24,000 bases of DNA. It comes from Minisyncoccia bacterium. Lineage in GTDB: Bacteria; Patescibacteriota; Minisyncoccia; Phycocordibacterales; UBA6065. Position numbers and translations under genes: made by a program. The stretch lies in NCBI GenBank assembly GCA_044233485.1, contig JBIIJY010000005.1:26815-50814 (forward strand). The letters run 5' to 3'. Under the pieces are notes generated by a model, which was not told the origin of the DNA, did not search any database, and was given only the letters and a program-made list of their open reading frames with translations. Positions 8,273-11,401 of the stretch are shown here, piece after piece (position 1 is the first letter of the stretch; the number at the start of each line of letters is the position of its first letter).

Positions 8273-8345
8273 GCGCCCGTAGCTCAGTCGGTAGAGCATC
8301 TCCCTTTTAAGGAGTGGGTCGTTGGTTCGATTCCAACCGGGCGCA
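8273..8345 (+). tRNA. tRNA-Lys (anticodon UUU)
   Basis: Cloverleaf read by eye. Acceptor GCGCCCG/CGGGCGC, D arm GCTC-AGTCGGTA-GAGC, anticodon loop CUUUUAA, T arm GTTGG-TTCGATT-CCAAC, discriminator A. CCA is not encoded. Confidence 0.9.
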
Positions 8346-8371
8346 CAAAACGACGTTGAGGCGTAACGTAG

Positions 8372-9139
8372 TTAACGTGTCTCACTCCAGATATACTCGA
8401 ACATAATTCTAAATGTCTCAGTGATATATTTACTCTCGATAACAACAGTTAGGTAGCTTTCTTTGAAATTAGTAATAGCGACCTTATCCCCGTAAATTAC
8501 TATTTGTGCAGGAATTTTCAAACGGTCAGCTGGAACTTTTTTTCGAGTAATTAAATATTGAGTGTCTTCCTCAATCGGGGTGGCAATTATCTGACCATCA
8601 GTGTGGGGTGTAATTGCTTTCGTGTGAATATTCTTTTCAATCTGTTTATCGATCTGTTCTTTAATTAAATGAAGAACTTCTTGACGCCCTTCATGTATGG
8701 GTGAACTGATTACAAGTATGTTTTGATTCGTTTCGAGGATGTCATTATGAGTATATTTAATACCCTCGATTCCTTCATAAAACTGCACATTAGGTTTTCC
8801 ATTCAAGGAGTTAAACTCAGAAGAAAGCTTTCCAAGTATGTTGCCAAACTCAGAAAAAGCTCGGGATACGTGCTGTTTTTTCGTTTCAAGAAGCTCTTGT
8901 ATGCCTTTTGGATGCTTAGGGAAGAAGAGTGATACCTTACCAATATCATCTCGTTTTTCGACAAGGTTTAATTCAATGAGCTGCTCAAGTACTTTGTAGA
9001 CTAATGGCCTACCAAGATTGGTTTTAAGAGAAATAATCTTTGCCGGCGATAGGCCGTTTTTCAAAAGGTAAGTATAAATCAGCGCTTGTTCTTGACTTAA
9101 TCCGCACTCAGTAAGGATTGTTTCATTTATATTTGTCAT
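8372..9139 (-). CDS. TrmB-family transcriptional regulator
   Basis: The N-terminal winged helix LSQEQALIYTYLLKNGLSPAKIISLKTNLGRPLVYKVLEQLIELNLVEK is TrmB-type. I set the start to ATG 9139 (MTNINE...) because a TATAAT -10 box (9157-9152, minus strand) lies inside the longer ORF-track version. Confidence 0.75.
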   Translation of the reverse strand: MTNINETILTECGLSQEQALIYTYLLKNGLSPAKIISLKTNLGRPLVYKVLEQLIELNLVEKRDDIGKVSLFFPKHPKGIQELLETKKQHVSRAFSEFGNILGKLSSEFNSLNGKPNVQFYEGIEGIKYTHNDILETNQNILVISSPIHEGRQEVLHLIKEQIDKQIEKNIHTKAITPHTDGQIIATPIEEDTQYLITRKKVPADRLKIPAQIVIYGDKVAITNFKESYLTVVIESKYITETFRIMFEYIWSETR

Positions 9140-9151
9140 AAGTATGTGACA

Positions 9152-9179
9152 ATTATACACTTATAAATACAGTATGCAA
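9152..9179 (-). promoter_or_regulatory. Promoter of the TrmB-family gene (short leader)
   Basis: On the minus strand: TTGCAT (9179-9174), 16-nt spacer, TATAAT (9157-9152). The ATG at 9139 is 12 nt downstream of the -10 box. Confidence 0.5.
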
Positions 9180-9231
9180 GTTAATTGTGTTATATAGCAA
9201 TGAAACTATAGAGATTCTAAGGTAGATTGTA

Positions 9232-9259
9232 TTGACAAATCTATTCATTATGCTATGAT
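9232..9259 (+). promoter_or_regulatory. Promoter of the hammerhead-punctuated operon
   Basis: TTGACA (9232-9237), 16-nt spacer, TGcTATGAT (TATGAT at 9254-9259). Divergent from the TrmB-family gene promoter about 50 nt away. Confidence 0.6.
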
Positions 9260-9325
9260 TATATAAGAACAAGGGAAAAGGAAGCACTTACGCTTTACTA
9301 CCTGAGTATAGTTGACATTTCAGTC

Positions 9326-9667
9326 ATGAAAACCACTACATATTTCGGCTTTGGCATCGCCCCCTCAATGTTCCCGGACGGGAACATCACCAAAACTACC
9401 CTTTCGCCTGAAGAGGCGAAAGCGGTGGTCGAGGCAGGGGTGATCCCTTGCCTCAACCCGAGCCATAAGGCGTCGATAGACGCCTTGGGGAGCCGGTTCG
9501 GCATCACAGTGCCAATTCCCGAGCGCGCGCCGACGGTGGCATTGGTGCCAGGCGATCGTCTGCTGGTCATGGGCATCTCGGGACTCCCTCGTTTGGAGGG
9601 TCGCCACGAGTATTCCAGTGAGGAGGTTGCCAAGGCCACCTTTACCTTCTCACTCTGGGCGGTTTAA
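9326..9667 (+). CDS. DUF1874 / AcrIII-1-like protein (putative cyclic tetra-adenylate ring nuclease family)
   Basis: 113 aa. Recognised from my memory of SIRV1 gp29 / STIV B116. It shares their length, an N-terminal hydrophobic FGFGIAPSMF segment, a His at residue 47 (NPSHKASIDAL versus the family's GHDSTI context), GDRLLVMGISG, an RLEG motif at residues 89-92 and a C-terminal FTFSLW strand. One hand-counted 60-nt line (9481-9540) is 43/60 GC, against about 18-19/60 in typical host lines. Confidence 0.55.
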   Translation: MKTTTYFGFGIAPSMFPDGNITKTTLSPEEAKAVVEAGVIPCLNPSHKASIDALGSRFGITVPIPERAPTVALVPGDRLLVMGISGLPRLEGRHEYSSEEVAKATFTFSLWAV

Positions 9668-9824
9668 GGAGAAGGGGGTGAGGAAGGTTGTAAGTGAACC
9701 TAAAAAACTTCACATCGGCCACGATTGTTATGGCGTCATCATCGACGAGACAGATGCGTAATTCTTTGGGGAAGCTCCAGAGCGCTTGGTAAGCGGAAAC
9801 TACTGGGATGATGCAAATTATCCC

Positions 9825-9874
9825 CTGTTCTCGGAATGTAATTCCGACTGATGAGTCCAAAAGGACGAAAACAG
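9825..9874 (+). ncRNA. Hammerhead ribozyme, type III (copy 1)
   Basis: Stem III CUGUU (9825-9829) pairs with AACAG (9870-9874). C17 is at 9830 (UUC site). Stem I is UCGGAAU-GUA-AUUCCGA (9831-9847). Core CUGAUGA (9848-9854), stem II GUCC-AAAA-GGAC (9855-9866), GAAA (9867-9870). All invariant core nucleotides are present. Confidence 0.9.
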
Positions 9875-9927
9875 AAAGTTTTTGAAGGAGTAAATTAACA
9901 ATCAAAAAAATAGAAAGGAGGTGAAAA

Positions 9928-10131
9928 ATGAGGAATAAATTCCTTAGTCTGACTAAGTGGTTGGCAGTCATGATCATCGTCAATAGCTTAATCGCTTTGG
10001 TGGTCGTCATGAATGCTGACACCAACAGTCAGTCGTTCCAGAAGTTTTGGGAGAGCCGTAACCTGATTCTGATCGCAAATCTTTTGCTGATCGTGGCTTG
10101 TGGTGCTTCCGCCCGACTCTCGAGGAACTGA
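9928..10131 (+). CDS. Small two-TM membrane protein (hypothetical)
   Basis: 67 aa. Strong SD AAGGAGGTG (9915-9923), with 4 nt between it and the ATG. Two predicted TM helices (WLAVMIIVNSLIALVVVM; LILIANLLLIVACGASA) and a basic C-terminus RLSRN. It lies between hammerheads 1 and 2. Confidence 0.65.
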   Translation: MRNKFLSLTKWLAVMIIVNSLIALVVVMNADTNSQSFQKFWESRNLILIANLLLIVACGASARLSRN

Positions 10132-10265
10132 CTGGTAGGAAAGTCTACCTAAAGGATCACCCAGGGTTTGCTAGTAAAGAACTCTAACCTTTAATTCAAA
10201 AGGGTGTGAATGTCACCGTGTATACATGGTGAGTTGGCGTGCAACGCCACGGATCAAAAGATTCG

Positions 10266-10317
10266 TTCTGTCTCGGAATGTAATTCCGACTGATGAGTCC
10301 AAAAGGACGAAACAGAA
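10266..10317 (+). ncRNA. Hammerhead ribozyme, type III (copy 2)
   Basis: Stem III UUCUGU (10266-10271) pairs with ACAGAA (10312-10317). C17 is at 10272 (GUC site). Stem I UCGGAAU-GUA-AUUCCGA, CUGAUGA, GUCC-AAAA-GGAC and GAAA follow. The 42-nt core is identical to copy 1. Confidence 0.92.
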
Positions 10318-10516
10318 GGTTCAAATTTAATGTGATCAGTTTCAGCTAGCATGAAACTGGTAAAGGATCTATCTCGCAGCGTGACGGCGAACCTGTCAGC
10401 GTAAGAGGTGGCTTAGATCCAGCTTAAGAATGACCTATTCTTGAGCACTTTATTGAGCCTGCCACGTTGTGTGGTTGGTTCATAGAGTTCTTGAACAACT
10501 AATTGAAAGGAGTGGT

Positions 10517-10756
10517 ATGTTGATCTTAAACATCGACCGAGTCAAACAGCTTGTTGAGGGAGACCAAAAGGATGGGGAGATCCCCATCATGGCTCTCCGT
10601 CGGAGGCTCATCGAGGGTAAGGTGACAAAGGCAGACCTTTTCAAGACGAGGTGCTTCGGCACCAGGTCTTGGAGAAGTCTGCTCGAGCTACTCGATCTCG
10701 AAGAGGGTCAAGTCATTGCCTCTCGTCCGGAGGGTGTGGTGGCGGCTGCGGCTTAG
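10517..10756 (+). CDS. Small hypothetical protein (possible helix-hairpin-helix-like nucleic-acid binder)
   Basis: 79 aa counted from ATG 10517, which follows the SD GAAAGGAG (10506-10513). The ORF-track GTG start at 10469 has no SD. The segment FGTRSWRSLLELLDLEEG loosely resembles an HhH motif. GC-rich. It lies between hammerheads 2 and 3. Confidence 0.55.
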   Translation: MLILNIDRVKQLVEGDQKDGEIPIMALRRRLIEGKVTKADLFKTRCFGTRSWRSLLELLDLEEGQVIASRPEGVVAAAA

Positions 10757-10799
10757 GCTCGCGGGGTATGCATACTACCTGGCAACAGAATTGTATGAA

Positions 10800-10823
10800 T
10801 AGTATTAGAGTACTCTAATACTA
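10800..10823. repeat. 24-bp perfect palindrome abutting hammerhead 3
   Basis: TAGTATTAGAGTACTCTAATACTA equals its own reverse complement. It ends 1 nt before stem III of hammerhead 3. Confidence 0.9.
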
Positions 10824-10874
10824 GTTGTTTTGGAATGTGTGTTCCGACTGATGAGTCCAAAAGGACGAAACAAC
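10824..10874 (+). ncRNA. Hammerhead ribozyme, type III (copy 3, divergent stems)
   Basis: Stem III GUUGU (10824-10828) pairs with ACAAC (10870-10874). U17 is at 10829 (GUU site). Stem I is UUGGAAU-GUGU-GUUCCGA (two G-U pairs), and the core CUGAUGA-GUCC-AAAA-GGAC-GAAA is identical to the other copies. It sits 57 nt upstream of the methyltransferase ATG. Confidence 0.85.
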
Positions 10875-10930
10875 AATCATCTACTTGCTTTTTATATAAT
10901 GAAGCGTCTATAGTAACTTCCGTCGACGCA

Positions 10931-11401
10931 ATGAAAAAATTTCTTATTCTCTATAATCTGCGCAGTGTATATAATGTGGGGGCGATTTTTCGTACTGCTG
11001 ATGCTGTTGGTATTGATTGTGTCTATTTGATCGGTACGACGCCGACACCACTCGATCGTTTTGGTAGTCCGCGAAGTGATTTTGCTAAATGCGCGCTCGG
11101 TTCAGAAAAAACTCTAGCCTGGGAATATCGAAAAACACTTGTACCACTTATTAAAAAACTACAAAAAGAAGGAGTTCAGATAATTGCTCTTGAGCAAGAT
11201 GCTCAGGCGATAGATTACAAAAAATATGAACCTATAGGTGATTGTGCTGTGATCTGTGGAGAAGAGGTGTATGGTATTCCTCTAAAAATACGTGCACTGG
11301 CAGATCAAACTCTCGAGATTCCAATGAAGGGGACGAAGGAGTCGCTTAATGTGTCTGTGGCGACAGGAATACTACTCTATGGACTATTCGACCGAGATTA
11401 A
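10931..11401 (+). CDS. SpoU/TrmH-family RNA 2'-O-methyltransferase
   Basis: 156 aa from ATG 10931 (MKKFLILYNL...). SPOUT motifs NVGAIFRTADAVG, IALEQD, VICGEEVYGIP and LEIPMKGTKESLNVSVATGILLY. The ORF-track extension from 10835 overlaps hammerhead 3 and I rejected it. Confidence 0.85.
   Translation: MKKFLILYNLRSVYNVGAIFRTADAVGIDCVYLIGTTPTPLDRFGSPRSDFAKCALGSEKTLAWEYRKTLVPLIKKLQKEGVQIIALEQDAQAIDYKKYEPIGDCAVICGEEVYGIPLKIRALADQTLEIPMKGTKESLNVSVATGILLYGLFDRD

Follow-up and report, generated by a model that had tools for sequence, protein, structure and literature searches.

We show here that a 24,000-nucleotide (nt) stretch of a 681-kb metagenomic contig from a Minisyncoccia bacterium (JBIIJY010000005.1; hereafter, the window) contains three complete type III hammerhead ribozymes, all of them on the sense strand of one plus-strand run of genes that is headed by a gene encoding a protein of 113 amino acids (aa) with a DUF1874 fold. 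We consider it likely that these hammerheads act in cis within one plus-strand transcript, and that they cut a polycistronic RNA into pieces that are separately stable. Ribozymes of the same build recur in related loci of the Candidate Phyla Radiation (CPR, or Patescibacteria) and in uncultivated phages.

An initial annotation, made from the sequence of the window, had placed the three hammerheads and described their parts, and an independent structural parse returned identical coordinates, strand and anatomy for all three copies (Table 1). In every copy, stem I has seven pairs and a loop of 3-4 nt, and stem II consists of the four pairs GUCC/GGAC closed by an AAAA loop. The core, CUGAUGA...GAAA, is complete in all three copies; H17 is C, C and U, never G, and A15.1 is always paired with U16.1. 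The core-adjacent pairs 10.1-11.1, 1.1-2.1 and 15.1-16.1 are G-C, U-A and A-U in each copy, without any mispair, and such mispair-free helices next to the core are a hammerhead criterion of Perreault et al. 2011 (PMC3088659). Folds and covariance-model alignments agree on the topology, with loops closing stems I and II and stem III open, and the hammerhead fold is the minimum-energy fold of copies 1 and 2. The three copies differ in stem III by paired changes only. Copies 1 and 2 share 42 identical nt, as had been claimed (9829-9870 equals 10271-10312); the string written out at the time had 40 nt, and 42 is reached when U16.1 and C17 are counted as well. The 23 nt that make up the core and stem II occur three times in the window versus not once in 100 shuffled sequences.

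The comparison with Rfam that the initial annotation had called for gave a mixed outcome: model Hammerhead_3 (RF00008) detects all three copies, and it stayed the best model after clan competition, but its curated cut-off is reached by copy 2 only. The gathering score being 48.5 bits, copy 2 (10265-10318) obtains 49.7 bits (E = 2.3e-8 over the whole window), and copies 3 (10822-10876) and 1 (9823-9876) fall below the cut-off with 38.8 and 38.5 bits (E = 2e-6 and 2.4e-6, respectively, over 1.7 kb). The RF00008 scores are lowered because the loop of stem II is short compared with the Rfam consensus. With a covariance model of the hammerhead family itself (R1, see below), copies 1, 2 and 3 score 65.9, 69.5 and 71.0 bits.

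Related hammerheads were collected from two sets. The viral set comprises contigs of uncultivated phages from IMG/VR (L001-L036), which were picked by an exact match to the 23-mer of core and stem II; 36 such contigs contain it. The genome set was obtained through relatives of the 113-aa protein, scanning one genome per species, and comprises 51 loci, nearly all of which are labelled CPR/Patescibacteria and a few of which have other labels. Across the two sets the structural parse found 67 compact type III hammerheads of the same build, and 58 distinct related hammerhead sequences form the alignment on which covariation was assessed and from which R1 was built. That the stems vary in a compensatory manner, originally concluded from three copies, is now supported on these 58 ribozymes. 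Stem I is paired in 99.8% of the alignment cells, and six of its seven positions show 3-6 different pair types; in stem III, the four positions next to the invariant A15.1-U16.1 pair, on its outer side, covary. The alignment has a covariation score of 0.71, versus 0.21 with shuffled partners and at most 0.13 with slid partners. Furthermore, 15 of the 18 pairs have changed on both sides, and 274 cells carry a double change versus 80 after shuffling. It should be noted that the parse demanded partial pairing and the viral set an exact stem II, so that the percentage of paired cells and the constancy of stem II are partly built in, whereas the selection filter did not produce the variety of pair types seen in stems I and III.

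R1 detects up to three hammerheads per locus in 13 of the 51 loci of the genome set, and these lie on the strand that also encodes the DUF1874-like protein; many loci of a metagenome set (33 loci) carry hammerheads too. Arrays of two or three are common in the phage contigs, four of which (L002, L014, L032 and L034) have three hammerheads each. Three loci (L040, L059 and L124) have a hammerhead ahead of the DUF1874-like gene. No match to hammerhead 2 was found by blastn in 50,697 cultured phage genomes, and Rfam at the gathering threshold returned tRNA and rRNA only, and no twister, pistol, hatchet or other ribozyme, for 32 related hammerhead-free loci. Some of the related copies depart from the compact build. 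Large insertions in stem II, forming extended hairpins of 25-70 nt with the core and stems I and III kept, are present in L042 (4511-4589 and 5030-5108), L074 (3387-3471 and 8611-8686), L037 (6351-6414) and L120 (4605-4723). A shared UUCAAAGACACU-like sequence precedes many phage copies (L002, L004, L006, L013-L015, L020, L023 and L032), pointing to a junction that is conserved within one group of phages. In L093 (2233-2310, minus strand), a hammerhead-like sequence in which CCGAUGAG replaces CUGAUGAG (U4 to C) stands at the usual distance after the structured element A described below, and may be a natural variant of the core.

According to the mechanism that we favour, the run of genes would form a single transcription unit whose transcript starts at the promoter-like site at 9232-9259. 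Each ribozyme would fold co-transcriptionally and cut 3' of H17, after positions 9830, 10272 and 10829, so that the RNA upstream of the cut would carry a 2',3'-cyclic phosphate and the RNA downstream of it a 5'-OH. Four pieces would result: an mRNA of about 565 nt for the DUF1874-fold protein, if transcription starts near 9266; a 442-nt RNA containing a 67-aa open reading frame (ORF), ORF67; a 557-nt RNA containing a second structured element, B, and the 79-aa ORF79; and a tail heading into the downstream SpoU-family methyltransferase gene. The upstream pieces would end 5-6 nt past the stable hairpin that abuts stem III, and the downstream pieces would open, with their 5'-OH, directly into the stem I and stem II hairpins of the ribozyme. 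Ends of these kinds, a cyclic phosphate with a hairpin at the 3' end and a 5'-OH with a hairpin at the 5' end, resist bacterial RNases. We propose that the ends are stabilised in this way because of what is generally known of 5'-end-dependent RNases and 3' exonucleases; each cistron would then be translated and turned over separately from its neighbours. The mechanism predicts defined 5'-OH and cyclic-phosphate ends and pieces that accumulate to different levels. The view that the array divides the operon into single-gene pieces holds insofar as one copy each stands between consecutive members of the series DUF1874-like gene, ORF67, ORF79 and downstream gene, but ORF67 and ORF79 are without homologues.

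Several observations weigh against this mechanism. Copies 1 and 3 miss the Rfam gathering threshold. In copy 3, the base of stem I is weak (U-A, U-G), and the minimum-energy fold makes stem III longer at the expense of this base, pairing H17 and the first bases of stem I with the GAAA core strand. Moreover, the GUU triplet of this copy is a slower cleavage site. Loop 1 of copies 1 and 2 is, judging from alignment gaps, 1-2 nt shorter than is the norm in the family, and such a short loop could weaken the loop-loop contact that is required at physiological Mg2+. At the level of the locus, 38 of the 51 related DUF1874-like loci are free of hammerheads, and the ribozymes are therefore dispensable for the DUF1874-like gene. 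Finally, "single-gene mRNAs" may be the wrong name for the pieces, since the cargo ORFs are homologue-free.

Table 1. Features of the hammerhead locus, in coordinates of the window
Feature	Position	Strand	Basis and remarks
TrmB-like helix-turn-helix regulator, divergent from the lead gene	8372-9160	-	PF01978, E = 1.1e-9
Sigma-70-like promoter candidate	9232-9259	+	TTGACA, 16 nt, TG-TATGAT; 11 of 12 matches in a consensus scan
DUF1874/AcrIII-1/Crn2-fold protein, 113 aa, first gene of the unit	9326-9667	+	Profile against PDB; AlphaFold model
Element A, three-hairpin RNA in the 3' untranslated region of the DUF1874-like gene	9753-9824	+	Alignment and RNAalifold
Hammerhead 1, type III	9825-9874	+	Predicted cleavage after C9830, triplet UUC; stem III of 5 base pairs (bp)
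ORF67, 67 aa, hydrophobic	9928-10131	+	AGGAGG 7 nt upstream of ATG; the gene caller picked a 53-aa version
Two hairpins	10235-10249, 10250-10265	+	Fold; the second adjoins stem III of hammerhead 2
Hammerhead 2, type III	10266-10317	+	Predicted cleavage after C10272, triplet GUC; stem III of 6 bp
Element B, variable hairpin (10422-10446) and long hairpin (10447-10488)	10422-10488	+	Alignment and fold
ORF79, 79 aa	10517-10756	+	GGAG upstream of ATG
Hairpin, 24-nt palindrome with 10 pairs and a 4-nt loop	10800-10823	+	Fold; adjoins stem III of hammerhead 3
Hammerhead 3, type III	10824-10874	+	Predicted cleavage after U10829, triplet GUU; stem III of 5 bp
SpoU-family methyltransferase, downstream neighbour	10931-11401	+	PF00588, E = 6.5e-31

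The sequences around the hammerheads are themselves structured. By folding, a hairpin abuts each of the three copies in the window on its upstream side (9805-9824, 10250-10265 and 10800-10823). A hairpin that stops no more than 3 nt from stem III was counted for 33 of the 45 CPR-type hammerheads and for 40 of the 43 from viral contigs, against a background of 20% among random 30-mers; the sequence of these hairpins differs from one hammerhead to another. On the downstream side, at a distance of a few bases, a GUUCUUUG box follows 20 of the 45 CPR-type hammerheads and none of the 43 viral ones (background 1.4%), and in CPR-type loci (L091-L123) it also often follows element B. The copies of this box in the window are degenerate, namely AGUUUUUG after hammerhead 1 (9876-9886) and GUUCUUGA after element B (10489-10496). 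The core of attC sites is GTTRRRY, and the box was rejected as an attC core, as it does not match this sequence. Hammerhead 2 and element B are some 100 nt apart (10318-10421, plus strand), and in this interval more strong hairpins can be recognised by eye, for example CAGUUUCA...UGAAACUG and GGAUCUA...UAGAUCC.

Element A comprises the hairpins 9764-9782, 9783-9795 and 9805-9824, the last of which adjoins hammerhead 1. Its parts follow each other in the order GGGGAAGCUCC apex, GC-YUGRYRA-GC hairpin, GAAAC and variable hairpin, and the alignment, analysed with RNAalifold, contains compensatory changes at seven pairs. We found it in 33 metagenome loci and in several loci of CPR genomes, sometimes with two copies in one locus; its pattern has no match in the viral contigs, and no credible match in Rfam was obtained at E <= 10. 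Element B, which the initial annotation had missed, sits between hammerheads 2 and 3. The base of its long hairpin is invariant (CUUUA-U-UGAG...UUCA-UAGAG), 97% of its pairs are formed over 17 distinct copies, with compensatory change at six of them, and the window copy has a minimum free energy z-score of -5.4. Rfam gave no credible match for this element either, permissive E-values included. Its first hairpin, together with a U-rich tract, is the sole terminator-like site that a simple scan of the plus strand returned between the promoter-like site and 10930.

What follows element A depends on the copy: it can be a hammerhead, element B or unrelated sequence. An automatic classification of 27 distinct copies of element A found a hammerhead after 14 and element B after five, and inspection by eye of the eight unclassified copies added two with element B and one with a variant-core hammerhead. 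The distance from the end of element A to CUGAUGA is about 48-50 nt in 14 of the 27. We tentatively raise the idea, which we regard as rather unlikely, that the hammerhead is one of at least two interchangeable punctuation RNAs of a CPR-specific cassette array with the DUF1874-fold gene at its head, element B possibly being an undescribed processing site. Element B might be a new self-cleaving RNA, or alternatively it might be the substrate of a protein nuclease, possibly of the DUF1874-fold protein itself, a member of a family that cuts RNA linkages by the same metal-independent attack of the 2'-OH. The two unannotated elements, A and B, are the more valuable lead from this locus.

The lead gene has a GC content of 58%, compared with about 40% in its flanks. 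No match to its 113-aa product was found in Pfam at E <= 10, PF08960 included, nor was PF08960 matched when the homologues P0008 and P0056 were rescanned against Pfam; many of the homologues bear a precomputed PF08960 flag. PHROGs gave nothing significant for the module genes, and ORF67 and ORF79, like the 113-aa protein, had no direct family match in Pfam or PHROGs. The DUF1874 label that the initial annotation had attached to the lead gene is nevertheless right; it follows from a family profile and a structure model and not from the Pfam HMM. A profile of 25 homologues matches AFV3-109 (2j6b) with E = 8.8e-4 over 97 positions, with a His and a Glu aligned. The AlphaFold (AF2) model of the protein has a pLDDT of 89, and Foldseek matches it to AcrIII-1 (6scf; template modelling (TM) score 0.76, E = 1.8e-6) as well as to 2j85, 2x4i, 8y7f and 2j6b; the model also resembles STIV B116, SIRV1 ORF114a and the Crn2 domain of Csx1-Crn2 (TM about 0.76 for AcrIII-1, B116 and Crn2). 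Identity to the solved members of the fold is only 15-21%. Judging by the model, the 113-aa protein has a ring-nuclease fold and is a candidate ring nuclease. We found 338 homologues, largely in CPR genomes. The lead protein has the invariant signatures CLNPSH and GLPRLEGRHEY. The invariant His of CLNPSH (H47 of the window protein) aligns with a His of AFV3-109 and may correspond to the catalytic residue; His47 is reportedly the active-site histidine of AcrIII-1 (Athukoralage et al. 2020).

A homologue of the TrmB-like regulator lies within the flank of 25 of the 51 related loci, and is directly divergent from the DUF1874-like gene in at least 15. The promoter candidate between the two genes is probably the start of the ribozyme-carrying transcript, as judged from a pattern match in a region where promoter-like sites are in total no more frequent than in shuffled sequences. 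ORF67 and ORF79 have good Shine-Dalgarno sequences but matched only themselves among 5.8 billion proteins, and are therefore putative coding sequences. The inter-ribozyme ORFs of the related loci are unrelated to both. The gene content of these loci was taken from strand-specific ORF listings, since maps of the longest ORFs favoured antisense ORFs over small genes.

The module is a discrete accessory block of CPR chromosomes, made up of a TrmB-like regulator, a DUF1874-fold gene and ribozyme-separated, hypervariable cargo. In L041 (3427-6629), the block that occupies 8273-10876 of the window, with tRNA-Lys, the TrmB-like gene, the DUF1874-like gene and the hammerheads, has the opposite orientation; the genes that flank it are those of the window, with a holA-like gene at one end and genes for SpoU, a 377-aa protein and Fpg at the other end. 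Among the 51 loci, SpoU is present only in L041, on the other side of the inverted block, and the hammerhead array there points away from it. In a relative with 71% identity, the TrmB/DUF1874-like pair is accompanied by three small ORFs in a different chromosomal context. The initial annotation had tied hammerhead 3 to the housekeeping methyltransferase; this association is incidental, since the block is inverted in L041 and lies elsewhere in the other relative, and a role of hammerhead 3 in serving the SpoU gene was rejected because of that inversion. No integrase, recombinase, phage or Cas family was found by Pfam among the window ORFs of at least 110 aa, and the module as a prophage was rejected, as phage genes were not found among them. 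The other window ORFs with Pfam matches are housekeeping genes, including those for RuvA, RuvB, a PolA-type polymerase, TsaE and Fpg.

Could the RNA itself be the product of the locus? Tandem type III hammerheads in the same orientation are a hallmark of retrozymes, in which, as in viroid-like RNAs, direct repeats of the ribozyme bound a segment of a few hundred nt. The 442- and 557-nt segments of the window might accordingly be cut out and ligated to form RNAs that are circular or stable in some other way, and the 42-nt identity of copies 1 and 2 would fit with this, as would the highly structured segments, with ORFs lacking homologues. However, the repeats of retrozymes and viroid-like RNAs are interchangeable, so that the excised monomer re-forms the ribozyme and is circularised, whereas consecutive stem III strands in the window are mismatched: AACAG of copy 1 and UUCUGU of copy 2 pair at A15.1-U16.1 and then mismatch, and ACAGAA of copy 2 forms only about four pairs with UAGUUGU of copy 3. 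Stem III of each copy fits its own partner instead, and an excised monomer would not rebuild the ribozyme well. The sequences of the segments also differ between loci and are not conserved, the setting is a bacterial chromosome, and the bacterial arrays studied by Perreault et al. (PMC3088659) gave no spliced or circular products. We therefore regard this explanation as very improbable. A role at the DNA level, in which the repeats would be boundaries or recombination sites of integron-like gene cassettes and the hammerhead fold secondary, appears improbable as well. In its favour, different loci have unrelated cargo between the repeats and varying numbers of units, the block as a whole is turned round in L041 and lies elsewhere in another genome, and an attC idea has been put forward for the RNA-ORF-RNA-ORF pattern beside DUF1874 genes (Weinberg et al. 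2017, PMC5737381). Yet conservation is of the ribozyme type, with invariant catalytic nucleotides and stems that vary but stay paired, and every ribozyme lies on the coding strand of its unit. An integron cassette array is bordered by an integrase on one side, and its recombination sites are simple hairpins with an R'/R'' core, whereas the repeats of the window are ribozymes; integrase and recombinase families were not found among the ORFs of the 24-kb window of at least 110 aa (Pfam), and the GUUCUUUG box, as described above, does not fit the attC core. Repeat-mediated turnover of cassettes may occur as a side effect.

Two further possibilities accept the ribozymes as such and differ in what they do. 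On the one hand, cleavage might be regulated, with adjacent structures (element A or the abutting hairpins) or a bound factor deciding on it and thereby tuning the downstream cargo. The strong conservation of element A, its fixed spacing to CUGAUGA in 14 of the 27 distinct copies, the TrmB-like regulator that belongs to the module and the competing fold in copy 3 are compatible with such switches. But nothing points to a ligand or factor, element A has no exclusive link with the ribozyme, given that it also stands ahead of element B or unrelated sequence, and the variable sequence of the abutting hairpins is what would be expected of plain stems that protect an end, so that we give this possibility a slim chance. 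On the other hand, the hammerheads might be inert remnants of a selfish repeat without current function, a proposal with which the identity of copies 1 and 2 is consistent, as after a recent duplication, and to which the two copies below the Rfam threshold could be added. It is extremely improbable in our view: the core is undamaged in all three copies, the differences in stem III between them are all paired, and the architecture has been kept across CPR lineages whose DUF1874-like proteins are 50-70% identical.

The locus has parallels in several known systems. By analogy, the layout of the module recalls an anti-CRISPR gene accompanied by its helix-turn-helix regulator: as in acr-aca loci, a small gene with the AcrIII-1 fold stands beside such a regulator and is followed by small, fast-evolving ORFs. 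It differs from these loci in that its regulator is TrmB-like and divergent, and Cas families were not found (window ORFs of at least 110 aa, Pfam). In synthetic insulators of the RiboJ type, a hammerhead upstream of a cistron trims the upstream RNA, leaves a hairpin-protected 5' end and decouples expression; those are engineered, whereas the arrangement in the window is natural and repeated. The compact hammerheads of the phage contigs are identical to those of the window in the 23 nt of core and stem II, have a stem I of equal length and a similar loop 1, are likewise abutted by a hairpin at stem III, and commonly form arrays of two or three per contig, but they lack element A and the downstream GUUCYU box (0/43). 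As a by-product, these sets provide very compact natural hammerheads of about 50 nt in many sequence variants.

Weinberg et al. 2017 (PMC5737381) described the "DUF1874 motif", an orphan structured RNA that owes its name to DUF1874 genes and is found in consecutive intergenic regions, for which an attC-like role was proposed. Its positional pattern, RNA-ORF-RNA-ORF, is that of the window. By its description, the motif has several stems and a conserved internal loop, and is not a hammerhead. If element A or B corresponds to this motif, the presence of a hammerhead in the same position argues for a role in processing or stability at the RNA level, and not for an attC-like DNA site.

The closest parallel is found in the clustered hammerheads of other bacteria. 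The initial annotation had considered the arrangement undescribed, a claim that does not hold, because triple hammerhead arrangements were reported and tested by Perreault et al. 2011 (PMC3088659). These authors described multiple hammerheads that flank single genes or short gene blocks, and proposed that they process polycistronic RNA; three tandem arrangements in native RNAs of about 2 kb gave the expected products in vitro, and the triple arrangement around ardA of A. tumefaciens was cleaved in vivo. A review from 2019 (PMC6765202) repeats this role for clustered bacterial hammerheads and, glmS apart, still calls the biological role of self-cleaving ribozymes in bacteria largely elusive. 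The locus analysed here is thus a further example of an arrangement known since 2011: in both, several copies in the same orientation separate the genes of one transcript, and the cargo in A. tumefaciens includes the anti-defence gene ardA, just as the lead gene of the window has the fold of the anti-CRISPR protein AcrIII-1. In the literature searched, outside which most subscription-journal papers lie, nothing relevant on hammerheads in CPR/Patescibacteria was found. The differences from the clustered hammerheads lie in the host, which is a CPR bacterium, in the fact that all three copies are of type III, in the neighbourhood, where prophage or integrase genes are frequent, although not obligatory, in the earlier cases and were not found in the window (ORFs of at least 110 aa), and in the link of the array with a conserved TrmB-like/DUF1874-like pair and two conserved RNA elements. 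The new aspects are therefore the CPR host group, the chromosomal setting outside a prophage, and the tie to the TrmB-like/DUF1874-fold pair. Thus, the locus provides a well-defined and recurrent setting for hammerheads outside prophages, in the streamlined chromosomes of CPR bacteria, where they part a gene with a ring-nuclease fold from its fast-changing cargo and where a hairpin frames each predicted cut site.

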